A stretch of 64,000 bases of DNA from Candidatus Limnocylindria bacterium (GTDB taxonomy: Bacteria > Chloroflexota > Limnocylindria > QHBO01). A program made the translations under genes and the position numbers. The stretch is taken from the NCBI GenBank assembly GCA_036556325.1, contig DATBJR010000043.1, positions 3,285 through 67,284 on the forward strand. The letters are read 5' to 3'. The notes under the pieces were generated by a model, which was not told the DNA's origin, did no database searches, and saw only the letters and a program-made list of their open reading frames with translations. Below, in pieces: positions 23,092-64,000 of this stretch (positions are counted from its first letter, which is position 1; each line of letters starts with the position of its first letter).

Positions 23092-23696
23092 GGGACCTCC
23101 TGCTGGCGACCGCGAATCGCGGCAAGCAGCGAGAATTCGGCCGTCTGCTGGCCGGCATCCCCGGCCGGCTCGTCTTCCCGCAGGAGGTGGGCATCGACCT
23201 GGATGTGCCGGAGCCGTATCCGACCTACGCCGGCAACGCGGCTGCCAAGGCGGAGGCCTACTGCCTCGCATCCGGGCTGCTGACCCTGGCCGATGATTCC
23301 GGCATCGAGGTCGAGGCACTCGACTGGGGGCCCGGCGTGGTGACCGCACGGTTCGGGGGCGATGACGTGGCCGATCGGGTGGGGCTCCTGCTGGACGCGG
23401 TCGGCGACACGTCGCGTCGGGCGGCGCGCATGGTCTGCGTCCTGGCCTTGGCCACCCCTGCCGCGGGACCGGGCGGGTCGCCACGAATCGAGATCTTCCA
23501 CGGAGAGATGAGTGGCGAGCTGACGCGCCAGGCACGCGGCGATGGCGGCTTCGGCTACGACCCCGTCTTCCTCGGGCCGAACGGCCGCACGAACGCCGAG
23601 CTGCCGGAGGGCGAGAAGGACGCGATCTCGCATCGGGGCCGCGCGGTCGCGGCGGCCATGCCGCGGCTTCGCGAGCTGCTGCAGGCGCCGGCATGA
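23088..23696 (+). CDS. rdgB: non-canonical purine NTP pyrophosphatase (dITP/XTP pyrophosphatase) RdgB/Ham1 family
   Basis: [13 protein letters not shown]-terminus and GFGYDPVF motif. The classic rph-rdgB gene pair, with a 4-nt overlap. Confidence 0.9.
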
Positions 23697-24286
23697 GCGA
23701 GCCGGCGTTCGTCCACCCGACTGCCGAGGTCGAGCCGGGCGCGGAGGTCGGCAGCGGATCCCGCATCTGGAGCCACAGCCAGGTGCGAGCCGGGGCACGC
23801 ATCGGGTCGGGCTGCAACGTCGGCCGCAACGTCTTCGTGGACGTCGACGTGATCGTCGGCGACCGGGTGAAGATCCAGAACAACGCCAGCCTGTTCCGGG
23901 GCGTGACCGTGGAGGATGGCGTCTTCATCGGTCCGCACGTGTGCCTCACCAACGACCGCCAGCCCCGCGCGGTGAACGCCGATGGCAGCCTGAAGACGGA
24001 CGACGACTGGCAGGTGACGCCCATCCTGGTGCGCACCGGCGCGGCAGTCGGTGCGGCCAGCGTCGTGCTGCCGGGCGTGACGATCGGCCGCTGGGCCATG
24101 GTCGGGGCCGGCTCGGTGGTCACCCGCGACGTCGCCGATCACGAGCTCGTGTTTGGCAGCCCCGCCCGCCGGCGCGGCAGCGTCTGCGTCTGCGGCCAGC
24201 CACTGCCCGATGGGCTCGACGGTGCCCCGTTTGCCGGCAGCTGCCCGGCCTGCGGACGCCCGTTTCCGCCCGAGGCCGAGCGGTGA
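23693..24286 (+). CDS. left-handed beta-helix (hexapeptide-repeat) sugar N-/O-acetyltransferase (WbpD/PglD/NeuD-like) with a C-terminal Cys4 zinc-ribbon-like tail
   Basis: Repeated [LIV]G-x-x-x-x hexapeptides (IGSGCNVGRNVFVDVDVIVGDRVKIQNNA...). The C-terminus is CVCGQPLPDG...GSCPACG. The ATG overlaps the rdgB stop. Confidence 0.8.
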   Translation: MSEPAFVHPTAEVEPGAEVGSGSRIWSHSQVRAGARIGSGCNVGRNVFVDVDVIVGDRVKIQNNASLFRGVTVEDGVFIGPHVCLTNDRQPRAVNADGSLKTDDDWQVTPILVRTGAAVGAASVVLPGVTIGRWAMVGAGSVVTRDVADHELVFGSPARRRGSVCVCGQPLPDGLDGAPFAGSCPACGRPFPPEAER

Positions 24287-25377
24287 GGGTCGTCACCGTG
24301 GTCGGTGCCCGTCCGCAGTTCATCAAGGCCGCACCGGTGAGCCGCCAGCTGCGGCCGCGGCACCGGGAGATCCTGGTGCACACCGGCCAGCACTACGACG
24401 ACGCCATGAGCGCAGCCTTCTTCCGCGAGCTCGAGTTGCCGGACCCCGATCTCAACCTGGAGGTCGGCAGCGGGACGCACGGGGCGCAGACGGGGGAGAT
24501 GCTGCGCGCGCTGGAGCCGGTGCTGCTGGAGCACGAGCCCGACGGCGTGCTGGTCTACGGCGACACCAACTCCACTTTGGCCGGCGCACTGGCAGCGGCC
24601 AAGATCGCCTATCCCGGGGGCCGCCGTCCGTGGCTGGCGCACGTGGAGGCGGGGCTGCGCTCGTTCAACCGGGCGATGCCCGAGGAGCGCAACCGCATCG
24701 TCGCCGATCACCTGGCGGACCTGCTGCTGGCGCCGACGCCGGCCGCGGCCAGCCAGCTGTCGGCTGAAGGGCTGGGCGAGCGTACCCGGGTGGTGGGTGA
24801 CGTCATGGCCGATGCCGTCTGCTGGGCCGCCGATCGCGCCGATCTGCACCTGCCCGCCGAGGCCGAGCAGCGACCCGGCTTCGTGCTGCTCACGCTCCAC
24901 CGGGCCGAGAACGTGGATGATCCGCGCCGCCTGGCCGCCTGCCTGGCCATGCTGCCGCACGATCGCCCGGTGATCTGGCCGATCCACCCCCGGACCGCGG
25001 CCGCGCTGAGCGCCGCCGGACTCGCGCCGGCGGCCAACGTCTGCGTGCTCGAGCCGGTCGGCTACCTGCCGATGCTGGCGCTCGAGCGTGCCGCGGCGGC
25101 CGTCGCCACCGACTCCGGCGGCGTGCAGAAGGAGGCCTACCTCGCCGGCACGCCGTGCATCACGCTGCGCGCCGAGACCGAGTGGGTCGAAACCGTCGCT
25201 GCCGGCTGGAACCGGGTCGCCGGCGAGGATCCCGATGCGCTGCGGGCGGCCCTGGCCGATGCGGCGTTCATGGACCGCTCCCGGGCACGGCCCGAGCTCT
25301 TCGGCGACGGCCACGCCGCGGAACGCATCGTCGCCGCGCTGGAGCGGCTTGACGTGGCATTCCCGGCCTCCGGATGA
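24283..25377 (+). CDS. wecB: UDP-N-acetylglucosamine 2-epimerase (non-hydrolysing)
   Basis: VVGARPQFIKAAPV N-terminus, HVEAGLRSFN and DSGGVQKEAY motifs. The GTG at 24283 overlaps the upstream stop (GTGA). The 611-aa track ORF from 23542 is the same frame read through upstream. Confidence 0.9.
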   Translation: MRVVTVVGARPQFIKAAPVSRQLRPRHREILVHTGQHYDDAMSAAFFRELELPDPDLNLEVGSGTHGAQTGEMLRALEPVLLEHEPDGVLVYGDTNSTLAGALAAAKIAYPGGRRPWLAHVEAGLRSFNRAMPEERNRIVADHLADLLLAPTPAAASQLSAEGLGERTRVVGDVMADAVCWAADRADLHLPAEAEQRPGFVLLTLHRAENVDDPRRLAACLAMLPHDRPVIWPIHPRTAAALSAAGLAPAANVCVLEPVGYLPMLALERAAAAVATDSGGVQKEAYLAGTPCITLRAETEWVETVAAGWNRVAGEDPDALRAALADAAFMDRSRARPELFGDGHAAERIVAALERLDVAFPASG

Positions 25378-26372
25378 CCGGCGAGGCGCTCCGCGTCGGG
25401 GTCATCGGCCTGGGGAGCATGGGCCAGCATCACGCCCGGGTCTGGTCGTCGCTGCCCGGTGCCGAGCTGGTGGCGGTCGCCGATCCGCGCGCCGACGTGC
25501 TGGAGCGCGCCACCGCGGCGACCGGCTCGCGCGGGTACGCCGATGCGCTGGAGATGCTGGCTGGCGAACGGCTGGACGTCGTCAGCGTGGCAGCGCCGAC
25601 GTCCCTGCACTGCGAGCTCACGGTGGCCGCCCTGCGCGCCGGGGGCAACGTCCTGGTCGAGAAGCCAATCGCCGCCGACCGGCGCGAGGCGCAGACGATG
25701 ATGGAGGCCGCGGCGGTCGCCGGCCGCCTGCTGACGGTCGGCCATATCGAGCGCTTCAACCCGGCCATCGTCGAACTGCGCCGCCGCCTCGGCCTTGGCG
25801 AGCTGGGCCGCATCTTCGAGGTTCGGGCGGAGCGGCTGGGACCGTTCCCGGACAGGATCCGCGACGTCGGAGTGGTTGTGGACCTCGCGCCCCACGACCT
25901 GGACGTCATGCGCTTCCTGCTCGGCTCGGACCCGGTGCGGGTCTACGCGGAGACCGAGCAGCGCATCCACACCGATCACGAGGACCTCTTCGTGGGCGTG
26001 ATCAAGTTCGCCAACGGCGCGGTCGGCCTGCTCGATATCAACTGGCTGACGCCCACCAAGCAGCGGCGGCTGTCGGTGACGGGTGAAGGCGGGATGTACG
26101 TGGCGGACTACCTGTCGCAGGAGCTGACCTTCTTCGCCAACCCGTCCGATGCCTCCGTCGCGGCGGGTCCGTCGCAGCCGCGCCACATCGAGCGGCGCGA
26201 GCCGCTGGAGGTCGAGCTCGAGGCCTTCGTCGCCGCGGTGCGCGACGGCGGGCCTCCACCGGTCGAACCGCGCGAGGCGCTGGTGGCGCTGCAGCTGGCG
26301 CGGGCCATGGTCGAGGCCGCCAACACCGGCAACGCGCTGAGCGGCCCGGCGCTGGCCGAGGCGCTGCGGTGA
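25374..26372 (+). CDS. Gfo/Idh/MocA-family NAD(P)-dependent oxidoreductase (WbpB-like sugar-nucleotide dehydrogenase candidate)
   Basis: An N-terminal Rossmann segment VGVIGLGSMGQHHAR and a GHIERFNP motif. It overlaps wecB by 4 nt. Confidence 0.85.
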   Translation: MTGEALRVGVIGLGSMGQHHARVWSSLPGAELVAVADPRADVLERATAATGSRGYADALEMLAGERLDVVSVAAPTSLHCELTVAALRAGGNVLVEKPIAADRREAQTMMEAAAVAGRLLTVGHIERFNPAIVELRRRLGLGELGRIFEVRAERLGPFPDRIRDVGVVVDLAPHDLDVMRFLLGSDPVRVYAETEQRIHTDHEDLFVGVIKFANGAVGLLDINWLTPTKQRRLSVTGEGGMYVADYLSQELTFFANPSDASVAAGPSQPRHIERREPLEVELEAFVAAVRDGGPPPVEPREALVALQLARAMVEAANTGNALSGPALAEALR

Positions 26373-26382
26373 GGCGCCGGAC

Positions 26383-27657
26383 ATGAGGATCGCGGTGGTC
26401 GGCCTGGGCCAGATCGGGCTGCCCCTGGCCGTGCAGTACGCGTCGCGGGGCCACGAGGTCATCGGCTGCGACGTCGACGCTCGCGTCGTCGACAGTGTCA
26501 ACCGTGGCGAGCCGCCGCACCCGGGCGAGGCCGAGGTCGACGAGCGGCTGCCTGGTCTGGTGGCGTCGGGTCGGCTGCGGGCGACCACGGACGATCGGGC
26601 CGGGGTGGACGGCGCCGAGACAGTGGTGGTCATCGTGCCGGTGGCCGTGGATGGCGAGCGGCGCATCGACTTCGCCGCGATCGACGGAGCGACGCGCGAC
26701 GTGGGCAGCGGCCTCTCCGCGGGAACCCTTGTCGTATTCGAGACGACCCTGCCGGTGGGGACCACCCGGAACCGGCTGACGCCGGTGCTCGCGGCCGAGA
26801 GCGGCCTCACCCTCGAACGCGACCTCTTCGTCGCCTTCTCGCCGGAGCGCGTCCTGGTGGGCCGCGTGCTGGTCGACCTGCGGCGCTATCCCAAGGTCGT
26901 GGGCGGCATCGGGCCGGAGTCGGCGCGCCGGGCCGTCGGCTTCTACACGGAGGTCCTCGATGCCGGGACAGAGATCCGGACGCTGGCCAGCGCCGAGGCC
27001 GCGGAGATGACGAAGCTGGCGGAGACGACGTACCGCGACGTCAACATCGCACTGGCCAACGAGTACGCCCGTTTCGCCGCGGCGCGCGGGATCGACGTGA
27101 TGGAGGTCATCGACGCCGCCAATTCCCAGCCGTACAGCCACGTGCATCGGCCAGGCGTGGGCGTCGGCGGGCACTGCATCCCGGTCTACCCCTATTTCCT
27201 CTTCACCGATGCACCCGAGATGCGCCTGCCGCCGGCGGCCCGTCGCGTGAACGACGAGATGGCCGCCTGGGCGGTGGCGGCCGCCGACGAGGCCCTGGGC
27301 GGCCTGCGCGGCGTTCCGGTGCTGGTGCTCGGCATCGCCTACCGCGGCGACGTGCGCGAGGATGCCTTCAGCTCCGCCTTCGCCCTGCGCGATGCCCTGC
27401 GCGCGGCCGGCGCCGAGGTGCACGGCCACGATCCCTACTTCGGCTCCGATGAGCTCGCGGCGCGCGGCTTTGCGCCGTGGCGGCCGGGCGACTCGGCGTC
27501 GATTCGCGTCGTCTTCCTGCAGGCGGACCATGCGGCGTATCGCGACCTCGACCTGGGCGCCATCGGCTCGCTGGAGCTGGTGGTCGACGGCCGCAACGCG
27601 CTTGACCCCGATGCCGTGCGCGCCGCGGGCGTCCGCTACCTCGGCATCGGTCGCTGA
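26383..27657 (+). CDS. wecC: nucleotide-sugar dehydrogenase, UDP-N-acetyl-D-mannosamine dehydrogenase (WecC/Cap5O)-like
   Basis: An N-terminal Rossmann segment IAVVGLGQIGLPLA. The catalytic Cys context GVGGHCIPVYPYF is typical of WecC/Cap5O rather than UGDH. It lies downstream of wecB. Confidence 0.8.
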   Translation: MRIAVVGLGQIGLPLAVQYASRGHEVIGCDVDARVVDSVNRGEPPHPGEAEVDERLPGLVASGRLRATTDDRAGVDGAETVVVIVPVAVDGERRIDFAAIDGATRDVGSGLSAGTLVVFETTLPVGTTRNRLTPVLAAESGLTLERDLFVAFSPERVLVGRVLVDLRRYPKVVGGIGPESARRAVGFYTEVLDAGTEIRTLASAEAAEMTKLAETTYRDVNIALANEYARFAAARGIDVMEVIDAANSQPYSHVHRPGVGVGGHCIPVYPYFLFTDAPEMRLPPAARRVNDEMAAWAVAAADEALGGLRGVPVLVLGIAYRGDVREDAFSSAFALRDALRAAGAEVHGHDPYFGSDELAARGFAPWRPGDSASIRVVFLQADHAAYRDLDLGAIGSLELVVDGRNALDPDAVRAAGVRYLGIGR

Positions 27658-27660
27658 TCA

Positions 27661-28452
27661 GTGTCCGAGCAGCAGCAGGTCGGAGCCGCGGAGGCGACCG
27701 CGCATGTAGGACTGGCAGCCGGCCGCGGGGTGTGGGTGGTGCTGCCGACCTACAACGAGCGGGAGAACCTGGAGGCGGTGAGCGCGGCCATCCTGCGCGC
27801 CCTGCCCGAGGGACAGCTGCTGGTGGTGGACGACAGCTCGCCGGACGGGACCGGGCTGCTGGCCGACACGCTCGCCGCCGGTGAGCCGCGGGTGCAGGTG
27901 CTGCACCGGCCCGCCAAGGAGGGCCTGGGGGCCGCGTACCGCGACGGGTTCCGCTGGGCCCTCGGCCAGCCCGGAACGCGGGCGGTGGTGCAGATGGACG
28001 CGGACTTCAGCCACGACCCCGGCGACCTGCCGCGCCTGCTCGCACCGTTGATGCGCGACGCCGACCTCGTCCTCGGCACGCGCTACATCAGCGGGGGCGG
28101 GACCATTGGCTGGCCGCTGTACCGGCAGGTGATCAGCCAGGGCGGGACGCTCTTCGCCCGAACCGTCCTGCTGCTGCCGTATCGCGACCTCACCGGCGGC
28201 TTCAAGGCGTGGCGTCGCGAGCTGCTGGAGGCGGTCCGGCTGCGTGACGCGAACGCGTCGGGCTACGGCTTCCAGATCGAGATGACGTGGTGGTCGCACC
28301 GCCGGGGGGCGAAGATCGTCCAGGTGCCGATCATCTTCCGCGAGCGGGTCGCCGGCCGCTCGAAGATGTCCGGCAGCATCGTGCGCGAGGCACTGCTGCT
28401 GGTGGTCAGGCTGCGACTCGGCGCCATGCTCGATGCCGTGCGACGCCGCTAG
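27661..28452 (+). CDS. GT2 polyprenol-phosphate glycosyltransferase (dolichol/undecaprenol-phosphate mannosyltransferase Ppm1/DPM1-like)
   Basis: VVLPTYNEREN, VVDDSSPDGT and QMDADFSHDP motifs. Confidence 0.85.
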   Translation: MSEQQQVGAAEATAHVGLAAGRGVWVVLPTYNERENLEAVSAAILRALPEGQLLVVDDSSPDGTGLLADTLAAGEPRVQVLHRPAKEGLGAAYRDGFRWALGQPGTRAVVQMDADFSHDPGDLPRLLAPLMRDADLVLGTRYISGGGTIGWPLYRQVISQGGTLFARTVLLLPYRDLTGGFKAWRRELLEAVRLRDANASGYGFQIEMTWWSHRRGAKIVQVPIIFRERVAGRSKMSGSIVREALLLVVRLRLGAMLDAVRRR

Positions 28453-28455
28453 CCG

Positions 28456-28477
28456 GGCTGCCTGCTAGCATGCAGCC
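28456..28477 (+). terminator. GC-rich hairpin (GGCTGC-N10-GCAGCC, containing the palindrome TGCTAGCA) 4 nt after the GT2 stop; possible intrinsic terminator/attenuator, no U-tract
   Basis: The inverted repeat is read directly from the sequence. It lies in the 75-nt gap before the PPIase gene. Confidence 0.3.
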
Positions 28478-28527: not shown

Positions 28528-30264
28528 ATGGCCTTCCGTAACCGTCCGGTTCTCGATCGCAAGCACCGTCCGCGCTGGCAGGACGAGTTGCGCATGCAGC
28601 AGCTGCTGGTCGCGGGCTTCGCCGTCGCGATCGCCATCGCGATCGGCATCTTTGCGGCGGCCGCCTGGAGCTCGTTCTTCGAGTCGAACCTGCGGCAATC
28701 GGCGCTGGTGGGTGGCGTGCCGGTCGACCGCTCGGCGGTGCTGACGCGCGTCAACATCCAGGCCGCCGAGCTGCAGGCCAAGGGCAGCGACCTGGCCTCC
28801 CTGACGGGCGGCATGACCGGCGACCGCTACTCGCAGCAGCTGCAGGGCATCCAGACCGCACTGAACCAGGTGCCGCAGAGCGGCGCCGATTCGCTGGTGA
28901 CCGGCATGGTCCTGGATCGGCGGGCGGCGGACTACGGCCTGAGCGTCACGCCGGCCGCGATCGATGCCGAGGTCGACAAGCGAATGCACCTCCCCGAGCG
29001 CCGCCAGCTGTCCATCATCATGGCCTCTCCCAAGAAGCCCAAGGGTGCCAGGGACAGCGACAAGCCGACCGATGCGGCCTGGGCCGAGGCCAAGCAGCGC
29101 ATCGACGATCTGAAGTCGCAGGTCGACGCCGGCGGCGACTTCGCCGCGCTGGCCAAGGACCAGAGTGACGACGGGAGCAAGTCGAAGGACGGGTCGCTGG
29201 GCTGGGTGCAGGCCGATGACCCGAACTACGCCGACTACTTCACCACGGCCGCCAAGGCGCAGACCGGCGACGTGCTGGGGCCATTCCGCAACGACGCCGG
29301 CTGGTACATCCTCAAGGTCGACGGCATCCGCCAGGCGACCGAGAACGCGACCCTGCGCGACCTGCTCACGGCCAGCGGCGTGAGCGACGCGGCCTATCGG
29401 GACTTCGTCCGGCAGGAGCTGCTGCGCGACCAGTACCAGCACTACTTCGAGACGAAGGTCGTCACCGAGTTCGAGCCGCAGCGCAAGGTCGCCCAGATCG
29501 TCATCACCAAGGATGCGCCAGGCTCCCCGGGCACCAAGCTCCGCCTGCGCCACGTCCTGGTGGCGCCGCTGCCCGGCGAGCCGGACCAGAGCAAGGCCAC
29601 GGCCAAGCAATGGCGGGCCGCGCTCGTCAGGGCCCGCGCGCTGCACGCCGAGCTGGTGAAGCCGGGCGCCAACTGGTGGGAGCTGGCCAAGCAGAGCGAC
29701 GATCCGGGCACGGCGACGCGCGGCGGCGCGCTCGGCTGGGCAGACCCCGGGACGCTGAACCAGCAGTTCGTGCCGGAGTTCGCGCGTGCCGTGCTGCGCA
29801 TGGCGGTCGGCGACACGAGCGAGCCGGTGAAGTCGCAGTTCGGCTACCACATCATCCAGGTCGTCGACCGTCGGACCTCCGTGCAGAGCTTCGCCGATGA
29901 CCTGGCGGCCAAGCTGCAGAAGGATCCCGATGGCTTCGCCGACATGGCCCGCGACCTGAGCGATGACTTCGCCACGGCCGGCGCCGGCGGCGAGCTCGGC
30001 TGGGTGCTCCACTACCAGCTGGCCAATGCGGCCGACGACGCGATCTTCGGGCTCGCCAAGCCAGGTGACGTGTCGGAGGCGGTCGCCACCAAGGGCGAAT
30101 ACACCATCTACAAGCTCGAGGAGGCGGCCGATGACCGCTACGCCACCAGGACGGCGCGCAACAAGGCCAAGGCCGGGTTCGGCAACTGGCTGGACAAGCT
30201 CAAGCAGGACGTCGGCTACTGGCTCGACGCCGAGTTCCTGCCGACCACCACCGCCGTCGGCTGA
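28528..30264 (+). CDS. membrane-anchored peptidyl-prolyl cis-trans isomerase, SurA/PrsA/PpiD-like with multiple parvulin (PpiC) domains
   Basis: N-terminal TM helix. Three repeats of the parvulin signature (GGDFAALAKDQSDDGSKSKDGSLGWV; ELAKQSDDPGTATRGGALGW; MARDLSDDFATAGAGGELGWV). Confidence 0.75.
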   Translation: MAFRNRPVLDRKHRPRWQDELRMQQLLVAGFAVAIAIAIGIFAAAAWSSFFESNLRQSALVGGVPVDRSAVLTRVNIQAAELQAKGSDLASLTGGMTGDRYSQQLQGIQTALNQVPQSGADSLVTGMVLDRRAADYGLSVTPAAIDAEVDKRMHLPERRQLSIIMASPKKPKGARDSDKPTDAAWAEAKQRIDDLKSQVDAGGDFAALAKDQSDDGSKSKDGSLGWVQADDPNYADYFTTAAKAQTGDVLGPFRNDAGWYILKVDGIRQATENATLRDLLTASGVSDAAYRDFVRQELLRDQYQHYFETKVVTEFEPQRKVAQIVITKDAPGSPGTKLRLRHVLVAPLPGEPDQSKATAKQWRAALVRARALHAELVKPGANWWELAKQSDDPGTATRGGALGWADPGTLNQQFVPEFARAVLRMAVGDTSEPVKSQFGYHIIQVVDRRTSVQSFADDLAAKLQKDPDGFADMARDLSDDFATAGAGGELGWVLHYQLANAADDAIFGLAKPGDVSEAVATKGEYTIYKLEEAADDRYATRTARNKAKAGFGNWLDKLKQDVGYWLDAEFLPTTTAVG

Positions 30265-30270
30265 TCGCAC

Positions 30271-33930: not shown

Positions 33931-34165
33931 TGATTCTCCCCGTGAGCGTGGGCTGGCTCGGTTGATGCCGATGATGGCCGGCGCATGATGCACCATCCGC
34001 TTCGGCGTGTCGACCGGCCGCCAATGGGGTAGGCCGGGGAAGTACCGGTTTCTGTTGACGACCTGCAACGGTCAGCGCGGCCGGACCCCGACCGCGGCCG
34101 ACCGGTTCGTTGTGCACGGCCAAGCCTGCCTGTACCCTCTCGGGCCCAGAGGTCCAGAAAGCCAG

Positions 34166-43920: not shown

Positions 43921-43931
43921 GCCCGCACCGC

Positions 43932-44945: not shown

Positions 44946-44969
44946 CCAGCCGTTACTCGACGAGATCCG

Positions 44970-44986
44970 TTGTGCACACTGCACAA
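44970..44986. promoter_or_regulatory. perfect 7-bp inverted repeat TTGTGCA-cac-TGCACAA, 112 nt upstream of glnA and 25 nt after the PucR-regulator stop; candidate operator
   Basis: Read directly from the sequence. It is the only perfect palindrome of this size in the 152-nt intergenic region. Confidence 0.4.
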
Positions 44987-55937: not shown

Positions 55938-55938
55938 T

Positions 55939-56838: not shown

Positions 56839-57749
56839 GCGGCGCGGACGCGGGAGCCGTCCAGCCAGGCCGACAGGTCGCGCCCCACCAGCTCGCCCAG
56901 CTCCCTGATCTGCGGCGCGAACTCCTCCAGCAACCGGCTTCTGAGCGTCGCGTCCATGGGAGGCCGGCTCGCGGCGGAGCTGTTCAGACGCAGCACCCGC
57001 TCGCGCACGGCATGCGCCAGCGGGAAGCGGCGGATGATGGGCACCAGCCTCAGCAGCGGACCGGGTGGCTGGTAGACGAGCCGCTGCAGGGCGCGGAAGC
57101 GGACGCGCTTGTTCGGGTTGCTGACGGCGAAGTCCGGGGCGAACGTCGGGTCCACGCCCAGGAACTCGAGCACGCGACGATAGGTGCCCGGCGTGTCGGC
57201 CACGAAGTCGTCGAAGACGATCACATGCACCCGCTCGCGGCCGAAGGCATGGAGGTAGCGGCGCAGCTGGTCGGCAAAGCGGACGCTCTCTCGGTAGTAG
57301 AGGTTCTCGACTCGCAGCGGCCCGGGTGGAAGGCGGCGGCCAGCCCGCCGTTCCGGCTCGGCGTCGAGCGCCTCACCGAAGTCGGCGATGTCCTCCTCCA
57401 CGTTGAACAGCAGCTGGCTGTGCTGGGCGTACATCACGTCCACCGGGTTGCGCAGCATCACGATGATCTTCCCCCCCGGCGCGGCAGCGTGGATCTCCGT
57501 TGCCGCCGAGCGGGAGTACAGGTACCAGGCCGATGCCTCCCCGATGCGCTGGCCGGGCTTGGCGTCCGCGAACAGGGCTTCGTACTGGGCGCGGGTCATG
57601 CGCCCGTAGCGACGGGTCAGATCGTCGCCGAAGAACAGCGGCTCCTTGTGAAAGGGCATGAAGATCTGCGGGTGCGGTCGCAGGTAGTCGTACAGGGCCG
57701 TGGTGCCACACTTGAAGGCACCCACGATGTAGAAGTCCGGAATCGGCAT
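56835..57749 (-). CDS. sulfotransferase family protein, type C (paralog 3, tandem duplicate)
   Basis: FYIVGAFKCGTTAL PSB motif. Long nucleotide stretches are near-identical to 55939-56838, for example the GTGCTGGGCGT(G/A)CATCACGTC(G/C)ACCGGGTTGCGCAGCAT segments. Confidence 0.8.
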   Translation of the reverse strand: MPIPDFYIVGAFKCGTTALYDYLRPHPQIFMPFHKEPLFFGDDLTRRYGRMTRAQYEALFADAKPGQRIGEASAWYLYSRSAATEIHAAAPGGKIIVMLRNPVDVMYAQHSQLLFNVEEDIADFGEALDAEPERRAGRRLPPGPLRVENLYYRESVRFADQLRRYLHAFGRERVHVIVFDDFVADTPGTYRRVLEFLGVDPTFAPDFAVSNPNKRVRFRALQRLVYQPPGPLLRLVPIIRRFPLAHAVRERVLRLNSSAASRPPMDATLRSRLLEEFAPQIRELGELVGRDLSAWLDGSRVRAA

Positions 57750-57869: not shown

Positions 57870-59501
57870 TTGACTGAGGCCTGGATTCCTGCCGATCACG
57901 GCAGCGGGCAGCAGGGCCTGCGCCGCCAGGTTGCGCGCGGCCTGACCTGGACCTTCGTCCACACCTGGGGCGGCCAGCTGCTGAGCCTGCTGGTGTTCCT
58001 GGTGCTGGCCCGCCTGGTCAGCGTCAACGATTTCGGGCTGGTGGCCTACGCCGCGCTCTTCGTGGCCTTCGCCCAGCTGCTGATCGACCAGGGCTTCGGC
58101 GACGCGATCATCCAGCGGCCCAGCGTCACCCGTGGGCACATCGACACCGCCTTCTGGGTCGCGGTTGCCACCGGGCTGCTGCTGTCGGTGATCGGCGTGG
58201 TCATCGCCGCACCGCTGGCGAGTTTTCTCACCGGCAAGGCGCCGGCCGATGCGCCGCGGCTGACCCCCATCATCCAGGTCCTCTCGCTGTTGTTTGTCAT
58301 CTCGTCGCTCAGCAGCACCCAGCAGGCGCTCCTGCGCCGCGAGCTGGCGTTCCGCAGCCTGGCCACCCGCGGCCTGCTGGCGCTGGGCGGCGGCGGCGTG
58401 GTGGGGATCGTCATGGCGTTCATGGGCTTCGGCGCCTGGGCGCTGGTCGGGCAGCAGATCGCGGCCGCGCTGATCGCGGTCGTCACCCTGTGGACGATCA
58501 GCCCGTGGCGCCCGGGCCTGGAGGTTTCGCGGGCGAACTTCACCGAGCTGTTCAACTTCGGCATCAAGGTCGTCGGCTCCGACATCCTGACCTTCCTGTC
58601 CCGCAACAGCGACAATTTCCTGGTCGGCATCTTCCTGGGCCCGACGCCGCTCGGCCTGTACGCGGTCGCCTATCGGATCCTGGACACGACCCAGAAGGTG
58701 CTCGTCAGCGTCTCGCGCCGGTTGGCATTTCCAGCCCTTTCGAAGCTCCAGGGCGACCGGGAGCGGATGTCGCGGGCGTACCTGCAGCTGACGCGGATCG
58801 CGGGTTCGGCCATCCTCCCGGGCTACGTCGGCCTGGCCCTGGTGTCGCCGGAGATGACCGTCGCCCTCTTCGGTGCCAAGTGGCAGTACGCCGGCGTCGT
58901 CTCCTCGGTGCTGTTCCTCATCGGCCCGGTCCTCTCGATCCAGGCGTTCTCGACCTCGCTCCTGACGGCAGCCGGCCACCCGTCGATCGTGTTCCGCTTC
59001 CGGCTGATCAGCACGATCGTCAACGTGCTCGGCTTCTTCCTGGCGGTGCAGATCGGTAAGGACATCCTGTGGGTGGCGTTTGCCTTTGCGTTGCGCGGCT
59101 ACCTGCTCCTCCCGCTGAACCTGTCATGGCAGCGACGGTACGCCGGCATTCCCATTGGCGCGTACCTGCTGCAGATGCGCGGCACCGCGCTGGCCACGCT
59201 GGCGATGACGGCGGTCGTGCTGGCAGTGAAGCTGCTGCTGTACGGGGTGCTTCGACCGACGCCGCTGCTGCTCGTGGAGGTCGTCGCCGGCGCGGTGACC
59301 TTCCTGCTGGCGATGTGGCTGCTGGACCGCCGCCTGCTGCTCGAGATGTGGCGCATCACCCGCCAGAGCGTCCCCGGCCTGCGCCGCTTCTCCGGCGTGC
59401 TGCCGCGCGGTCGGCCGCGGGCGCTGGCCGAAGCCTCGCGTGAGCCCGCGGCCGAGGCGAAAGCGGATCCGCTCAGCCCATCGATCCGGGGCGACGAATG
59501 A
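57870..59501 (+). CDS. Wzx-type flippase (MOP/PST polysaccharide biosynthesis protein), second copy
   Basis: 14 TM-helix PST-family topology with an N-terminal conserved segment (GLTWTFVHTWGGQLLSLLVFLVLARL). Confidence 0.8.
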   Translation: MTEAWIPADHGSGQQGLRRQVARGLTWTFVHTWGGQLLSLLVFLVLARLVSVNDFGLVAYAALFVAFAQLLIDQGFGDAIIQRPSVTRGHIDTAFWVAVATGLLLSVIGVVIAAPLASFLTGKAPADAPRLTPIIQVLSLLFVISSLSSTQQALLRRELAFRSLATRGLLALGGGGVVGIVMAFMGFGAWALVGQQIAAALIAVVTLWTISPWRPGLEVSRANFTELFNFGIKVVGSDILTFLSRNSDNFLVGIFLGPTPLGLYAVAYRILDTTQKVLVSVSRRLAFPALSKLQGDRERMSRAYLQLTRIAGSAILPGYVGLALVSPEMTVALFGAKWQYAGVVSSVLFLIGPVLSIQAFSTSLLTAAGHPSIVFRFRLISTIVNVLGFFLAVQIGKDILWVAFAFALRGYLLLPLNLSWQRRYAGIPIGAYLLQMRGTALATLAMTAVVLAVKLLLYGVLRPTPLLLVEVVAGAVTFLLAMWLLDRRLLLEMWRITRQSVPGLRRFSGVLPRGRPRALAEASREPAAEAKADPLSPSIRGDE

Positions 59502-60850
59502 GCGAAGACCTGGATCGAGCAGCGTCATCGGCCGCCGCAGGCAAGCCGGCTGGGCCGACGGAGCAACCGCCGGAGCTCGGCAAGGCGATGTGGGGCCTGA
59601 CGGGAGCGCGGCCTGGCCTGCGGATGGCGGCCAAGTTCGCACGGCGCAACGCCATGTCGGCCGTCTTCCTGGCCAGCCGCCTGTCGCGTCGCGACAAGCG
59701 GGTGTGGCTCTTCGGCAACCACAAGGGCTTCCGTGACAACCCGCGCTACCTGGCCGAGCACATCGTGGCCGAGCATCCCGAGATCGAGGTCTGGTGGCAG
59801 GCTCGCAGCCGCCGGGAGGCGGAGGCGGCTCGCGCGGCGGGGCTCAAGGTCGTGCTGCGCAGCTCGCGGACGAGCGCACGGCTGCACCTGCGGGCCGGCG
59901 TGGCCTTCCTCTGCTCCGGCTTCATGGATCTCCGCGTGCCGCGGCTGGGCGGCGCCTACATCGTCCACCTCTACCACGGCACGGCGCTGAAGCGGATCTC
60001 CCTGGACGTCGACTTCGAGCGGTTCGTGTCCGGGTCGCGCTTCGGGCGCTGGTACGCCGCGCGGCAGCACGCGGGGCTGCAGTCGCGCCATCGCCGCGTC
60101 TCCATGGTGGTTGCGGCCGGTGAGCTGGCCAGGCGCCGCTTCGAGACGGCCTTCGGCCTGCCGCCGGAACGCATCCCGATCCTCGGTACACCGCGCTTCG
60201 ACGTGATCCTGGGCGGTCCGGCCTATCGGCGCGTGGCCGGCGACGACCTGCGCGGGCGCCTGGGCATCGGCGCCGCCGACCACCTGGTGCTGTGGCTGCC
60301 GACCTGGCGCGAATCGGGCGACGCCGGCTGGCTGCCGGCCGTCGACAGGGCCGCGGTGGACAAGGCGCTCGGGGGTTCGAAGGTCCGGATGCTGGTCAAG
60401 CCGCATCCCTACGCGGACTTCGACGTCTACCGCCAGCGCCTGCCCGATCACCCGGCCCTGCGCCTGCTCCGCGAGGATGACACCGACGTCAACGCCCTGC
60501 TGCACATCGCCGACACGCTGGTGACCGACTACTCCAGCGCCATGTTCGATTACGCGCTGCTCCATCGGCCCATCCATTTCTTCGCCCCGGATGCCGCCGA
60601 GTACACCGAGGGTCGTGGCTTCTACGAGCCGTACGACGAGCTGACCGGTGGCCATCAGCATCTCGCCTGGGGCACGCTGCTGCCCGCGCTGCGAGAGGCC
60701 GCCGAAGGCACGGACGCGGCCGGCCTGGCCATGGCCGAGCGCATCGCCGCGCTCGCTGGCAACTGCGAGGAGCCAGGCAACAACGAGCGAATCTTCCGCG
60801 CCGTCGCCGAGGCCGCCGGCGTGCCGCTCCCGGACGGACGAACGGCATGA
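59498..60850 (+). CDS. CDP-glycerol:poly(glycerophosphate) glycerophosphotransferase family (TagB/TagF-like, Glyphos_transf)
   Basis: Signature segments HLVLWLPTWRE and ADTLVTDYSSAMFDYALLHRPIHFFAPD. It overlaps the Wzx stop by 4 nt. Confidence 0.85.
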   Translation: MSEDLDRAASSAAAGKPAGPTEQPPELGKAMWGLTGARPGLRMAAKFARRNAMSAVFLASRLSRRDKRVWLFGNHKGFRDNPRYLAEHIVAEHPEIEVWWQARSRREAEAARAAGLKVVLRSSRTSARLHLRAGVAFLCSGFMDLRVPRLGGAYIVHLYHGTALKRISLDVDFERFVSGSRFGRWYAARQHAGLQSRHRRVSMVVAAGELARRRFETAFGLPPERIPILGTPRFDVILGGPAYRRVAGDDLRGRLGIGAADHLVLWLPTWRESGDAGWLPAVDRAAVDKALGGSKVRMLVKPHPYADFDVYRQRLPDHPALRLLREDDTDVNALLHIADTLVTDYSSAMFDYALLHRPIHFFAPDAAEYTEGRGFYEPYDELTGGHQHLAWGTLLPALREAAEGTDAAGLAMAERIAALAGNCEEPGNNERIFRAVAEAAGVPLPDGRTA

Positions 60851-62145
60851 GCGAGGAGACGCCGCGCGCGATCACGGCGCCCATCAAGGCCCTCCAGGAC
60901 GAGCGCGGCGCGCGTCGCATGGTCACCAGCTTCGTGCGGCGCATCGGCGGGGCCGGCATCTACTACCTCAGCCACCTGTCGCGGCGCGACCCGACAGTGT
61001 GGGTGTTCGGCAATCACAAGGGCTTCCGCGACAATCCACGCTACCTGGCCGAGCACATCGTCCATGCCCATCCCGAGCTGGAGCCATGGTGGATCGCCCG
61101 CACGCCCGCCGAGGCGCAGCTGGCCAGGGATGCCGGCCTGCACGTGGCCATGTTCGCCGGCAAGCTCGGGGCTCGCATCCAGCGGCGGGCAGGGGTGGGG
61201 TTCCTCTCGAACGCCTTCATCGACCTGCGCTCGCCGTACCTCGGCGGCGCGCTGATCGTCCACCTCTACCACGGCACCGCCCTCAAGCGGATCCTGCTGG
61301 ACATGGACGTCACCCGGGTCATGCGTGGCTCGCCCCTGACGCGGGCGTTCAAGCGACTGCATCGCTGGTCGATCGCCCGCCGGCTGCGCCAGGTGGACCT
61401 GATCATGGCCGCCGGCGAGCTCGCGCGGGAGCGGTTCGTGACGGCCTTCGGCATCCCGGCGGAGCGTATCCCACCGGTCGGCACGCCGCGCTTCGACGTC
61501 ATCCAGGGGGGCGCCGCCTACGACCGCGTGGTGCACGGAGACCTGCGCGCCCAGCTTGGCGTGCAGCCGGACGAGCACCTGGTGCTGTGGCTGCCCACCT
61601 GGCGCGAGCACGGGGATGCTCCCTGGCTGCCGGCGCTCGACGCCTCGACGGTCGAAGCGGCGTTCGGGCGCACCAACGTGGTGATGCTGGTCAAGACCCA
61701 TCCGTATGCCGACCAGGAGGTCTACGAGCAGCGGCTGCCGCCGCATCCGAAGATCCGCCTGCTGCCCGAGGCGGACGTGGACGTCAACACCCTGCTGCGC
61801 ATCGCCGATACGCTGGTGACCGACTACTCCAGCGCCTTCTTCGACTACGCCCTGCTGGAGCGGCCCATCCACTTCTTCGCCCCCGATACGGACGAGTACC
61901 GTGGTGGACGGGGACTCTACGAGCCGTTCGAGAGGCTGACGGGCGGGCAGCACCACACCGAGTGGCACTCGCTGCTGACGGCGCTGGCGGACGCGTCCCG
62001 CGGCGAGGACGAGCAGGGCATGGCCATGATGCGCCGCGTCGTCGCCTTCGCCCGCAACAACACCGAGCCGGGCAGCTGTGAGCGCATCGTGCAGACCGTG
62101 GCACAGGCGGCCGGGGTGCGGCTGCAGCCCGCCCGCGCCGACTAG
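60847..62145 (+). CDS. CDP-glycerol glycerophosphotransferase family (TagF-like), tandem paralog
   Basis: The same signatures (HLVLWLPTWRE, ADTLVTDYSSAFFDYALLERPIHFFAPD). Extensive nucleotide identity to 59498-60850. The ATG overlaps the preceding stop. Confidence 0.85.
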   Translation: MSEETPRAITAPIKALQDERGARRMVTSFVRRIGGAGIYYLSHLSRRDPTVWVFGNHKGFRDNPRYLAEHIVHAHPELEPWWIARTPAEAQLARDAGLHVAMFAGKLGARIQRRAGVGFLSNAFIDLRSPYLGGALIVHLYHGTALKRILLDMDVTRVMRGSPLTRAFKRLHRWSIARRLRQVDLIMAAGELARERFVTAFGIPAERIPPVGTPRFDVIQGGAAYDRVVHGDLRAQLGVQPDEHLVLWLPTWREHGDAPWLPALDASTVEAAFGRTNVVMLVKTHPYADQEVYEQRLPPHPKIRLLPEADVDVNTLLRIADTLVTDYSSAFFDYALLERPIHFFAPDTDEYRGGRGLYEPFERLTGGQHHTEWHSLLTALADASRGEDEQGMAMMRRVVAFARNNTEPGSCERIVQTVAQAAGVRLQPARAD

Positions 62146-62885
62146 GACGGCGGCGGCTCCAGGAACTTCGGCAGCAGCCGGCGCGCGGTTTCCAGGTCCT
62201 CGGCGAAGTCGATCTCGGTCCACGCGCGCCCCCGGGTTGGCACGGCGACGGCGTCGGCGCCGCCGTCGGCCAGGAGCCGGTTGATGGCCGCCTCGAAATA
62301 GGAGCCGATGGCGCCGTCCGCCACCTCCCGCTCGATGGCGTCGACCAGCCCGGGCACGATCCGCGCCCGGAACAGCCCGATCCCGATGAACTCGCCCGCC
62401 GTCCGCTCGTCCGGAAGCTCCTTGGAGAGGTGCAGGATGCGGTCGCCCGCGACCTCGGCCTTCATCTGCTCCGGCTCGCACGCCCGCAGGTCGACCGGCA
62501 GCGCGATATCGGCTTCGGCCGCCAGCAGGTCGTCGAGGATGGTCGGGTCGAACACCGTATCGGCATGGGCGTAGACGAAATCGTCATGGAGCCGGTCGCG
62601 CGCGAACCAGGCCGAGCCGAGCACGTTCGTCACGCTCCAGAACGGGTTGAAGACGAACTCCAGGCCGATGCGTCCCGCGGCGCGCCGCTCGGCCGCCGCC
62701 TGCAGCAGATCGCGGCGATAGCCGGTGACCAGCACCGCTCGCCCGACGCCGCGCGCGATGAGCACCTCCAGCTGGAGCTCCAGCGGGCTGATTCCGCCCA
62801 GGTCGATCAGCGCCTTCGGCCCGTCGTCGGTGAGGCCGCCCAGCCGCGACCCGCGTCCGGCAGCCATGATCAGCGCATCGGTCAC
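62142..62885 (-). CDS. sugar/alditol-phosphate nucleotidyltransferase (GT-A-like NTP_transferase fold; candidate CTP:glycerol-phosphate or ribitol-phosphate cytidylyltransferase)
   Basis: N-terminal IMAAGRGSRLGGLTDDGPKALIDLG nucleotide-binding loop. The GTG at 62885 overlaps the upstream dehydrogenase stop (GTGA). The 410-aa track ORF is a frame artefact extending upstream. Confidence 0.7.
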   Translation of the reverse strand: MTDALIMAAGRGSRLGGLTDDGPKALIDLGGISPLELQLEVLIARGVGRAVLVTGYRRDLLQAAAERRAAGRIGLEFVFNPFWSVTNVLGSAWFARDRLHDDFVYAHADTVFDPTILDDLLAAEADIALPVDLRACEPEQMKAEVAGDRILHLSKELPDERTAGEFIGIGLFRARIVPGLVDAIEREVADGAIGSYFEAAINRLLADGGADAVAVPTRGRAWTEIDFAEDLETARRLLPKFLEPPPS

Positions 62886-64000
62886 CAGCTCGCCTCGTAG
62901 AGGGCCGTCAGCGCGTCCGGATCGGTGGGTCCCGGGTCGTTCTCCAGCGTTCCCTCGACCATGCCCGCCAGGCGGGGCAGATCCTCGCGGCGGATGCCCA
63001 GGTCGCGCAGGCGCGGCTGCAGGTCGATGCGCTCCATGAACGACAGCACCGAGGCGGCGACCGCCGCGGCCGCGTCGCCCTCGTCCCGGGCGGCACTGCC
63101 GATGCCCGCCGCGAAGGTGGCCAGCCGCTCCGGAGCGTGCCGCAGCACGCGGTCCAGCCACGCCGGCGTGAGCGCCGCCACGCCGGTGGCATGCTCGCTG
63201 TGCGCAACTGACCCCAGCGGGTACTGCATCCGGTGCGGCAGGCAGGTGGTGGAGTTGGCGAGGTTGACGCCCATCAGCATCGCCGCGTAGGCGGCGGCCG
63301 AGCGCGCCGCCAGGTCGCCGGGCTGCGCCATCGCTCGCGGCACGGCGTCGAGCAAGCGTGGCAGCGCCTCCCATGCCAGCGTGCGCGTCACCGGGCTGGC
63401 GGCGCGCGAGATCGTCGTCTCCACCGCGTGAGCCACGGCATCGAAGCCGGCGCGGGCCGTGACCCGCGGCGGGCAGCCGACCGCCAGCTCCGGATCGACG
63501 ATCGCCGCGCGCGCGGCGACGCCGCGGCCCCGAATGCCATGCTTCCGGCCGGTGTCGGGGTCCGTCACGATCGCGCCGCGGCTGACCTCCGCGCCGGAGC
63601 CCGCCGTGGTGGGCAGCGCGACCACGGGCAGCCCCACCGGGCTGTCGAAGCGGGGCCCGGTGGCCAGCTGCTCAGCATCCAGCACCGAGTGCGCGCTGAC
63701 GGCCGCCGCCTTGGCCAGGTCGATGACACTGCCACCACCCACCGCCACCACCACCGTCGCCCCGTGCTCCCGGAACGCGTCGGCCGCCGCCAGGACGCTG
63801 CCGAGCTCGGGTTCCGCGGTCACCTGGCAGCGGACCACGGCCTCCACCCCCGCCGCCCGCAGCGCGTTTTCGATCTCCGCGCCGTGCGGTCCGGCGGCGA
63901 GCGAGTGCGCGCCGGTGACAAGGGCTGCGCGCTCGCCGAACGCGGCCGCGATCCTGCCGACCTCGGCCCGCCGGCCGACGCCGAAGGAGACGGTCGTATC
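62882..64000 (-). CDS. iron-containing alcohol dehydrogenase / glycerol(-1-phosphate) dehydrogenase family (DHQS-like fold); 5' end beyond window
   Basis: A GGGSVIDLAKA glycine-rich NAD motif, DPDTGRKHGIRGRGVAARAAIVDPEL, and metal-His motifs (AVAHAVE, H..TGVAALTP). The frame stays open to the window edge. Confidence 0.7.
   Translation of the reverse strand, partial: DTTVSFGVGRRAEVGRIAAAFGERAALVTGAHSLAAGPHGAEIENALRAAGVEAVVRCQVTAEPELGSVLAAADAFREHGATVVVAVGGGSVIDLAKAAAVSAHSVLDAEQLATGPRFDSPVGLPVVALPTTAGSGAEVSRGAIVTDPDTGRKHGIRGRGVAARAAIVDPELAVGCPPRVTARAGFDAVAHAVETTISRAASPVTRTLAWEALPRLLDAVPRAMAQPGDLAARSAAAYAAMLMGVNLANSTTCLPHRMQYPLGSVAHSEHATGVAALTPAWLDRVLRHAPERLATFAAGIGSAARDEGDAAAAVAASVLSFMERIDLQPRLRDLGIRREDLPRLAGMVEGTLENDPGPTDPDALTALYEASW

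Follow-up and report, generated by a model that had tools for sequence, protein, structure and literature searches.

We examined a 64,000-nucleotide stretch of contig DATBJR010000043.1 (positions 3,285 to 67,284 of the forward strand) from a Candidatus Limnocylindria bacterium, hereafter the window, in which five sulfotransferase (ST) genes, ST_A to ST_E, occur among genes for synthesis of a surface glycopolymer. The evidence leans modestly toward a single Wzx/Wzy-dependent pathway that would produce an acidic, heavily decorated surface heteropolysaccharide, predicted from gene content to be a sulfated, polyol-phosphate-bearing, teichuronic-acid-like wall polymer. We infer sulfation, wall attachment, and the supply of the sulfate donor 3'-phosphoadenosine 5'-phosphosulfate (PAPS). 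An earlier sequence-only reading of this DNA had put forward a candidate sulfated wall polymer. Part of that proposal stands, in that the STs are genuine and ST_C, ST_D, and ST_E lie within a cluster of Wzx, Wzy, GT26, TagF, and acyltransferase 3 (AT3) genes, but the pathway is not the canonical one for teichoic acid and ST_A is probably separate.

The host is a soil member of the Limnocylindria, a class of Chloroflexota, and not a classical Gram-positive bacterium. Named homologues of the encoded proteins come from 'Candidatus Limnocylindria', 'Limnocylindrales', or Chloroflexota metagenome-assembled genomes (MAGs), nearly all homologues are metagenomic, and exact or near-exact matches trace to JGI metagenomes, among which one is called soilH2. 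An actinobacterial origin, which the high G+C content had suggested, was rejected on the names of these homologues and on the 85% identity of ST_C to a protein of MAG SMAG_U1237. Because the window has a G+C content of 72% (70-74% throughout) and raw open reading frame (ORF) lists are full of spurious frames, genes were called from third-position GC and frame plots, and start codons were then fixed. Every called ORF was scanned with Pfam, at gathering cut-offs, and key ORFs were scanned with NCBIfam. About 50 genes were called; five ST genes among them is far above the usual bacterial frequency.

Judged by sequence, all five STs are genuine PAPS-type enzymes by family, as the sequence-only reading had claimed, and each exceeds its Pfam cut-off in the hidden Markov model check. 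ST_A (35293-36225, minus strand; 310 aa) matches Sulfotransfer_3 at 115 bits against a cut-off of 27; because of the lengths of its orthologues, its start was set to the ATG at 36225 rather than at 36339. ST_B (36240-36968, minus strand; 242 aa) is a divergent Sulfotransfer_2-type protein with the sulfotransferase fold and, at 26.1 bits against a cut-off of 22, the weakest Pfam member of the five. The remaining three match Sulfotransfer_3 and Sulfotransfer_1 models at 48-66 bits: ST_C (55050-55937, plus strand; 65.8 bits to Sulfotransfer_3 and 55.7 bits to Sulfotransfer_1), ST_D (55939-56838, minus strand; Sulfotransfer_3, 48 bits), and ST_E (56835-57749, minus strand; Sulfotransfer_3, 60.1 bits). 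ST_C, a carbohydrate-type enzyme, and ST_E resemble heparan sulfate O-sulfotransferases (OSTs), and ST_D is a paralogue of ST_E (64% identity). By BLAST, ST_C shares 31-35% identity with ST_D and ST_E and about 25% with ST_A, and ST_B is unrelated to the others, which gives three to four sequence types, in agreement with the sequence-only reading.

The N-terminal 5'-phosphosulfate-binding (5'-PSB) loop occurs in all five proteins (SPRTGST in ST_A, LPRTGST in ST_B, APKAGTT in ST_C, AFKAGTT in ST_D, and AFKCGTT in ST_E) and is also kept in their homologues. The 3'-phosphate-binding (3'-PB) motif reads RDPRAIYAS in ST_A, RNPLDDAVS in ST_B, and RQPVERAYS in ST_C; all three have the leading Arg and the final Ser, and among them only ST_C has the internal Arg of R-x-P-x-x-R-x-x-S. 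Both motifs of ST_C are almost invariant in 120 homologues. The corresponding segment of ST_D and ST_E is RNPVDVM(H/Y)A (RNPVDVMHA in ST_D), with the first Arg kept, the internal Arg replaced by Val, and the Ser replaced by Ala. This variant is kept in orthologues from three other assemblies (L010, L011, and L013) and therefore looks like a selected feature. A third orthogroup, present in L011 and L013, retains the 3'-PB Ser.

The nearest sequence of known structure is, for both ST_C (E 6e-28) and ST_E (E 3.5e-41), the Alicyclobacillus sulfotransferase 3RNL, followed by heparan sulfate 3-OST and N-deacetylase/N-sulfotransferase (NDST) for ST_C and by 3-OST-3A for ST_E. With the heparan sulfate 3-O- and N-sulfotransferases and 3RNL these proteins share the PKxGTT loop, the RxPxxRxxS motif (in ST_C), and a K-E-P motif. 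The Glu of the latter is invariant across the ST_C/D/E family and, read from the motif, may be the counterpart of the catalytic Glu of 3-OST. The likeness is limited by an identity of only 25-35% to ST_C and ST_E and by the Arg-to-Val and Ser-to-Ala changes in ST_D and ST_E. The proteins of known structure nearest to ST_A are OLS/CurM ST domains and protein-tyrosine sulfotransferases. None of the five STs has a membrane segment, which fits cytoplasmic, PAPS-dependent action.

As the sequence-only reading had noted, genes for PAPS supply are absent from the window: neither Pfam on all called ORFs nor tblastn with E. coli CysD, CysN, and CysC revealed an ATP sulfurylase or adenosine 5'-phosphosulfate kinase. 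In favour of PAPS dependence, distant members of the ST_C/D/E family adjoin cysD-cysN-cysC (L023) or cysC (L071); the metagenome scan used for this association, made with an ST alignment, recovered mainly distant relatives (26-37% identity) and was not used for synteny. Within the ST/TagF cluster of L011 lies a DHH/DHHA1 protein (12997-13989) that scores highest in NCBIfam against NrnA, a bifunctional oligoribonuclease and PAP phosphatase (89 bits, well under the cut-off), and it may remove 3'-phosphoadenosine 5'-phosphate (PAP), the by-product of sulfotransfer. Pointing the other way, Mehrshad et al. reported that most freshwater Chloroflexi MAGs, a set that takes in Limnocylindria, lack PAPS synthase and sulfate adenylyltransferase (PMC6169038); this was the only study that a literature search on PAPS genes in the class brought up. 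Together with the noncanonical 3'-PB motif of ST_D and ST_E, these absences would fit ST-like proteins that do not sulfate in vivo, whether for want of a PAPS pathway, through use of another donor, or as decaying paralogues. We regard this as highly improbable, given that motifs and full-length ORFs are kept down to 50-55% identity with three to nine paralogues per cluster, that the variant motif of ST_D and ST_E is itself conserved among orthologues, and that cysDNC genes adjoin family members elsewhere.

The glycopolymer genes form three sub-clusters, at 23.7-28.5 kb, 31.4-39.7 kb, and 46.5 kb to beyond the window end at 64 kb, and in the last of these ST_C, ST_D, and ST_E sit between genes for a glycosyltransferase (GT) of family 26 and a Wzx flippase, embedded in a Wzx/Wzy cluster as in the synechan-type systems. 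The GT26 protein (54181-54975, minus strand) belongs to the WecG/TagA/CpsF type (Glyco_tran_WecG, PF03808, 150 bits; NCBIfam superfamily 116 bits against a cut-off of 69, with no equivalog cut-off reached) and is predicted to add the second sugar, of N-acetylmannosamine (ManNAc) or N-acetylmannosaminuronic acid (ManNAcA) type. The flippase (57870-59501, plus strand) is a TuaB-like member of the multidrug/oligosaccharidyl-lipid/polysaccharide (MOP) superfamily (Polysacc_synt_3, 270 bits), with NCBIfam scores for MOP flippase (236 bits) and TuaB (193 bits) that both fall under their cut-offs. On the other side of the GT26 gene, all on the minus strand, lie an OatA-type O-acetyltransferase with AT3 and SGNH domains (52106-54208; Acyl_transf_3 117 bits, SGNH 105 bits; eleven membrane segments; also found in L002, L011, and L013), the inorganic pyrophosphatase ppa (51524-52078; Pyrophosphatase 188 bits), the glycosyltransferase GT4c (50458-51513; Glyco_trans_1_4 55 bits), and a polytopic Wzy_C protein (48887-50500; 66 bits), conserved in L010, L011, and L013. 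Gaps of 27 and 10 nt separate ppa from the AT3-SGNH and GT4c genes, and ppa also lies within the cluster of L002, L010, and L013; the WecG-to-Wzy genes, ppa included, are a probable operon. At the start of the sub-cluster GT4b (46500-47660, plus strand; Glycos_transf_1 and Glyco_trans_4_4) has the same position in L010. It is followed by a polytopic protein (47657-48985, plus strand) with nine hydrophobic segments in a simple hydropathy scan and no Pfam match, probably a second MOP flippase, to which an NCBIfam MATE score of 28.6 bits (well under the cut-off) and 31% identity to Wzx over 101 aa point weakly.

Predicted priming and ligation functions fall in the second sub-cluster. A WecA/TagO-type polyprenyl-phosphate N-acetylglucosamine (GlcNAc)-1-phosphate transferase (37156-38121, plus strand; Glycos_transf_4, PF00953, 135 bits) has eight predicted membrane segments; its best NCBIfam match is ECA_wecA at 144 bits, under the cut-off, and so holds at family level only. 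Beside it is a LytR-CpsA-Psr (LCP) protein, a candidate glycopolymer-peptidoglycan ligase (38118-39686, minus strand; LytR_cpsA_psr, PF03816, 83 bits; NCBIfam LCP 67 bits against a cut-off of 62). GT4a (31395-32588, plus strand; Glyco_trans_1_4 and Glyco_trans_4_4) opens this sub-cluster, and its homologue adjoins the LCP gene in L011, L013, and L014. It precedes a protein (32572-34068, minus strand) with a weak NHL-repeat match (23 bits) and one N-terminal hydrophobic segment, for which a PDB sequence search gave nothing useful; an NHL-CBM4_9 protein flanks an ST-rich cluster in L015. Directly adjoining the LCP gene, here as in L017, is a polytopic GGDEF diguanylate cyclase (39907-41526), and a related ST-rich cluster, in L016, encodes a Wzz-GGDEF fusion (16530-17657), which hints at control of the polymer by cyclic di-GMP.

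The first sub-cluster holds a nucleotide-sugar operon (23693-27657) on the plus strand. It begins with a hexapeptide-repeat sugar acetyltransferase (23693-24286; Hexapep 68 bits) of NeuD/PglB/WbpD-like type (NCBIfam NeuD/PglB/VioB subfamily 105 bits, under the cut-off), followed by a nonhydrolysing UDP-GlcNAc 2-epimerase of WecB type (24283-25377; Epimerase_2 311 bits; wecB equivalog 276 bits against a cut-off of 210), a GFO/IDH/MocA oxidoreductase (25374-26372), and a nucleoside-diphosphate-sugar 6-dehydrogenase (26383-27657). The oxidoreductase is a candidate WbpB-like UDP-sugar 3-dehydrogenase (best NCBIfam match UDP-GlcNAc 3-dehydrogenase, 287 bits, under the cut-off of 450). The 6-dehydrogenase has the N-terminal, central, and C-terminal UDPG_MGDP_dh domains, scores 304 bits against the NCBIfam NDP-sugDHase model, above its cut-off, and is nearest to UDP-ManNAc dehydrogenases; an orthologue sits within the ST cluster of L013 and L014. 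The WbpA/B/D/E/I route to 2,3-diacetamido-mannuronic acid has five activities, and the operon covers four. We ruled out the complete route to UDP-ManNAc3NAcA, as the DegT-type aminotransferase that a 2,3-diacetamido sugar requires was not found in the window. At a minimum the operon is predicted to supply a ManNAcA-type uronic acid, which suits the GT26 enzyme. Adjoining it is a GT2 protein (27661-28452, plus strand; Glycos_transf_2 102 bits) resembling the polyprenyl-phosphate sugar synthases GtrB, Ppm1, and PpgS, with weak NCBIfam matches to PpgS and AglJ.

Most of the sequence-only inventory was recovered at these positions: the initiating transferase, the GT26 enzyme, the Ppm1-like GT2, the Wzy/ligase-like protein, the OatA-type acetyltransferase, the LCP gene, and the embedded ppa. 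The ORF at 23693, where its locus begins, is the hexapeptide acetyltransferase and not wecA, and of the four GT4s that it counted only three were found. Of its two Wzx flippases, that at 57870-59501 is confirmed, but that at 47657-48985 shows only weak MOP/MATE similarity. A Wzx/Wzy-type set (initiating transferase, MOP flippase, Wzy-type protein, and several GTs) is present, and it is conserved in L010, L011, and L013.

A Wzy_C domain is equally compatible with a polymerase, a ligase, and an O-oligosaccharyltransferase. It is common to WaaL ligases and to O-oligosaccharyltransferases of PglL/WsaB type, and the domain alone was detected here, so a sulfated oligosaccharide could instead end up on a lipid or on a protein of the surface or S-layer, with no polymerisation or wall link. 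No chain-length regulator of the Wzz/polysaccharide co-polymerase (PCP) kind (Wzz or GNVR domain) was found by Pfam among the window ORFs, and a CW_binding_2 surface protein is encoded within the ST cluster of L015; both would suit such a transfer. It is nevertheless very unlikely, because the cluster is accompanied by LCP and TagF-like genes and no acceptor protein is evident in the window.

Potentially adding phosphate to the glycopolymer are two TagF-like polyol-phosphate transferases downstream of Wzx (59498-60850 and 60847-62145, plus strand), also foreseen by the sequence-only reading. They are 58% identical to each other and match Glyphos_transf at 169 and 170 bits, and the second matches S. 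epidermidis TagF (PDB 3l7i) at 1e-25. In both, the His of an 'HGT' motif and a second His align with histidines of that enzyme, which we take to be the catalytic H444 and H584. NCBIfam equivalog cut-offs for TarF, TarL, and TarB were not reached. Next comes an NTP_transf_3 nucleotidyltransferase (62142-62885, minus strand; 49 bits), a candidate CDP-alditol synthase with weak matches to inositol-1-phosphate cytidylyltransferase and sugar-1-phosphate nucleotidyltransferases; no TagD/TarI cytidylyltransferase model in NCBIfam matched it at E <= 1e-5. It adjoins TagF in L010, L011, and L013. A class III iron alcohol dehydrogenase (Fe-ADH; 62882-64000, minus strand; Fe-ADH and ADH_Fe_C domains, with the 5' end off the window) is a candidate reductase of an alditol-phosphate pathway, its NCBIfam matches being to PsrA/SarD/GbsB/lactaldehyde-reductase-like proteins. 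A role as glycerol-1-phosphate dehydrogenase, which would have made sn-1 glycerol phosphate, was rejected: the enzyme is of class III, and its match to that dehydrogenase is just 22.7 bits. In the syntenic L010, a gene for an FGGY kinase nearest to xylulokinase comes after the Fe-ADH gene, past the point that corresponds to the end of the window. This grouping of NTP_transf_3, class III Fe-ADH, and xylulokinase-like FGGY genes beside a TagF pair (62142-64000 in the window; 15429-18869 in L010) is a candidate, apparently undescribed, CDP-alditol pathway with a kinase-reductase-cytidylyltransferase logic.

Measured against the canonical wall teichoic acid pathway, the locus has TagO-type, GT26, TagF-type, and LCP genes, but neither TagGH nor TagD/TarI: no ABC-transporter domain was detected in any called ORF of the window, where Wzx and Wzy_C occur instead, and no TagB equivalog was found there. 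Lacking an ABC exporter, TagB, and TagD, the system is Wzx/Wzy dependent, like those for teichuronic acid and capsules.

The sequence-only reading described one supercluster from 23693 to 64000. In fact seven unrelated genes break up these 40 kb (a peptidyl-prolyl isomerase (PPIase), MazG, the GGDEF protein, a DUF3048 protein, a MetB-like enzyme, PucR, and GlnA), so the region is not contiguous. A minus-strand ORF at 43917-44984 was discarded as a gene; it has no Pfam match, and the real gene is PucR on the plus strand. A scan of 46-64 kb for promoters and terminators found no more than expected from shuffled sequence and is uninformative for a phylum of high G+C content.

Whether the dispersed pieces act together was addressed with related loci. 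Gene order in the close relatives L002 and L010 is identical, and it is the same in the soil MAG SMAG_U1237, which encodes a protein 85% identical to ST_C. Specifically, L010 (81% identity) runs GlnA, GT4, membrane protein, Wzy, GT4, ppa, GT26, three STs, Wzx, two TagF genes, NTP-transferase, and Fe-ADH. In L011 and L013/L014 (52-54% identity) the order is shuffled. L013 has one contiguous cluster with three STs of ST_C/D/E type, an ST_B homologue (53% identity, at the cluster end), Wzx, Wzy, GT4s including a GT4a homologue, TagF, NTP-transferase, LCP, AT3-SGNH, UDP-sugar dehydrogenase, and ppa; L011 keeps most of these genes. In L011, L013, and L014 the LCP gene and the ST/TagF cluster form one unbroken stretch, and in the searches made here no relatives other than those nearest the window (L010, L011, L013, and L014) showed the TagF and LCP association. 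Counterparts of all three sub-clusters are thus contiguous in L013, which is the best available evidence for joint function, LCP included, and together with L011 it supports the earlier proposal that the pieces, ligase included, form one system.

Three independent assemblies (L015, 1693-16480; L016, 2818-13458; L102, 1791-17529) also place relatives of ST_B in clusters that hold Wzy, a UDP-sugar dehydrogenase, three GT4s, and, within roughly 15 kb, eight to nine STs, a very high density for bacteria. The same clusters hold APH-like kinases. Overall, the ST_B family comprises 153 clusters (50% identity) at E <= 1e-30 among 1.84 billion representative proteins.

ST_A probably stands apart from the main cluster. 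Next to it in the window is a gene for a secreted right-handed beta-helix protein of polyuronate C5-epimerase/lyase-like type (34166-35305, plus strand). A PDB sequence search with it found nothing useful, but its structural model matches polyuronate (alginate) epimerases and lyases, which fits a uronic-acid polymer. On two contigs of more than 1 Mb (L100, 8787-11143; L101, 8924-11143) its orthologue (68-73% identity) adjoins the ST_A orthologue (75%), and the neighbours there are housekeeping genes (trigger factor, ClpP, and ClpX) with no glycopolymer genes. ST_A, which the sequence-only reading had counted in its supercluster, is therefore better seen as half of a separate conserved pair, and probably belongs to that pair rather than to the main cluster. 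The pair probably acts on the same or another uronic-acid polymer; one speculation is that it couples sulfation with extracellular epimerisation or cleavage, the two proteins being predicted to lie on opposite sides of the membrane.

These observations would fit the possibility that the locus holds at least two unrelated systems, with one sulfated polymer made from 46.5-64 kb, other products made by ST_A and ST_B (with the beta-helix and NHL proteins) and by the genes at 23.7-28.5 kb, and the appearance of a supercluster partly coincidental. The seven interrupting genes, the two flippase candidates, the isolated ST_A/beta-helix pair in L100 and L101, and the ST-rich, TagF-free clusters of the ST_B relatives would all be explained. 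We consider this unlikely, since L013 unites homologues of ST_B, LCP, GT4a, and the UDP-sugar dehydrogenase contiguously with STs of ST_C/D/E types.

Alternatively, the pathway may yield a sulfated extracellular polysaccharide (EPS) or capsule that is free or only loosely bound, as for synechan, with LCP serving another polymer. Those sulfated Wzx/Wzy products that have been characterised are EPS or capsular polysaccharides (PMC8205485, PMC11641403). A gap of about 7 kb, occupied by unrelated genes, separates LCP from the main cluster in the window, and in a cultured Rubrivirga, from another phylum, a similar cluster of six STs carries Gram-negative-type Wzx/PCP export genes. Release is unlikely all the same, given that LCP lies within the ST/TagF cluster of L011 and L013/L014 and that WecA and GT26 are the classical linkage-unit pair (TagO/TagA) of wall-attached polymers. 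We thus retain a single pathway with wall attachment as the preferred reading.

Several points nonetheless weigh against that reading. The source organism is uncultured, and in the window the LCP, WecA, and nucleotide-sugar genes are cut off from the main cluster by unrelated genes. ST_A and the beta-helix protein co-occur in relatives away from glycopolymer genes. The ambiguity of Wzy_C, the missing DegT-type aminotransferase, the absence of PAPS-supply genes from the window and from most freshwater relatives, and the altered 3'-PB motif of ST_D and ST_E count on the same side.

We infer the substrates and the order of the steps in the following pathway. The 2-epimerase and the 6-dehydrogenase would turn UDP-GlcNAc into a uronic acid of ManNAcA type, which the oxidoreductase and acetyltransferase may take on to a 2,3-diacetamido form. 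WecA/TagO would prime undecaprenyl phosphate with GlcNAc-1-phosphate, and the repeat unit would be finished on the cytoplasmic face by the GT26 enzyme and the GT4s. The two TagF-like enzymes may add alditol-phosphate from a CDP-alditol donor, and this donor would be made by the NTP-transferase and the Fe-ADH reductase together with the FGGY kinase that L010 encodes past the end of the window. Soluble ST_C, ST_D, ST_E, and probably ST_B would place several sulfates from PAPS on the lipid-linked unit, which would then be flipped by Wzx and polymerised by the Wzy_C protein. Outside the membrane the polymer may be O-acetylated by AT3-SGNH and joined to peptidoglycan by LCP. The pyrophosphatase would pull the pyrophosphate-releasing nucleotidyl-transfer steps, as well as the ATP sulfurylase step, if present.

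The nearest wall-polymer precedent is teichuronic acid. The B. subtilis tua locus encodes the Wzx-like TuaB, a Wzy-like polymerase, GT4s, and a UDP-sugar dehydrogenase, and leads via LCP attachment to an anionic uronic-acid wall polymer. The same gene types occur here, and the window Wzx matches the TuaB model, although all scores fall under equivalog cut-offs and tua lacks STs, TagF-like genes, and OatA-type genes. With the wall teichoic acid pathway the locus shares TagO/TagA-type enzymes, a TagF family with aligned histidines, a CDP-alditol supply module, and LCP; it differs in lacking TagGH, TagB, and TagD equivalogs and in having an NTP_transf_3 nucleotidyltransferase and a class III Fe-ADH reductase, and sulfation is not known from that pathway. 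Pneumococcal teichoic acid and pneumococcal capsules with glycerol-phosphate side groups are Wzy-type polyol-phosphate glycopolymers, from which sulfation is likewise not known. Wzx/Wzy assembly is combined with dedicated CDP-2-glycerol genes and a glycerol phosphotransferase in pneumococcal capsule loci (PMC1391919), and this CDP-alditol logic is comparable to what we find.

For sulfation, the closest comparisons are synechan synthesis by xss of Synechocystis sp. PCC 6803 and the predicted wps-1 cluster of Actinoplanes missouriensis. Both are Wzx/Wzy clusters with several GTs and at least two PAPS-type STs of different subfamilies, with sulfate presumably added to the lipid-linked unit in the cytoplasm (PMC8205485, PMC13390465). 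They differ from the present locus in that their products are released or matrix EPS and in that they carry PCP and outer membrane polysaccharide export (OPX) genes or Wzz, with XssQ/R/S regulators in xss; the window ORFs yielded neither a STAND regulator nor a two-component pair, and neither OPX nor PCP. Their descriptions mention no LCP, TagF-like protein, WecA plus GT26 linkage unit, or AT3-SGNH, and the Chloroflexota cluster would add polyol phosphate. Chemically proven sulfated capsular polysaccharides with ST genes in the locus are known from the marine Gammaproteobacteria Vibrio sp. KMM 8419 and Cobetia marina (PMC11641403). The Vibrio locus is Gram-negative, exports through an ABC transporter (Kps), has cysDNC copies in the locus, and involves neither wall ligation nor polyol phosphate (PMC11641403).

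Elsewhere in the window, a GlgE-pathway alpha-glucan cluster (1620-13096) lies upstream of the glycopolymer locus and is unrelated to it, encoding GlgE-like maltosyltransferase, alpha-amylase/TreS-like, maltokinase-like, isoamylase-like, 4-alpha-glucanotransferase, and branching enzyme GlgB proteins. It is followed by mreB and mreC (13830-15839), which suggest that the cell is rod-shaped and builds lateral wall. Big_5 Ig-like domains occur in two large proteins (15854-21208) that are probably secreted, the second of which (1136 aa) combines GH18, fn3, SH3_3, FlgD_ig, and Big_5; they could be surface proteins associated with the wall, or an enzyme of chitinase/muramidase-like type. Found among the envelope genes are also a membrane-anchored PPIase with three parvulin domains, similar to PrsA/SurA (28528-30264), and a DUF3048 lipoprotein-like protein (41549-42682).

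Precedents exist for STs in Wzx/Wzy clusters, sulfated capsules, LCP ligation, and the pathways to teichuronic and teichoic acids. Sulfated polysaccharides are nevertheless still regarded as rare among bacteria, and they have been called essentially cyanobacterial (PMC8205485, PMC13390465). Sulfation, polyol phosphate, and an LCP/WecA/GT26 wall-linkage set were not found described in combination for Chloroflexota in the open-access literature. In the same literature we found no occurrence of 'sulfated teichoic' or 'sulfated teichuronic', though older subscription papers may be missed, and no paper on Limnocylindria and sulfotransferases. Limnocylindria loci repeatedly pair three to nine carbohydrate-type STs with Wzx/Wzy, TagF-type transfer, and LCP. 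We raise, tentatively, the idea that the peptidoglycan of Limnocylindria is coated by a glycosaminoglycan-like polymer which is heavily sulfated and also bears teichoic-acid-type polyol phosphate. If this is true, no sulfated secondary cell-wall polymer would have been known from a bacterium before.

Ester sulfate makes up a large share of soil organic sulfur, and such a polymer could be a substantial, unrecognised biological source of this pool. Should the chemistry be confirmed, sulfate would join phosphate, carboxylate, and pyruvate in the repertoire of anionic wall polymers, new polysaccharide sulfotransferases would become available for producing sulfated glycans, and there would be a first handle on the cell envelope of the Limnocylindria.

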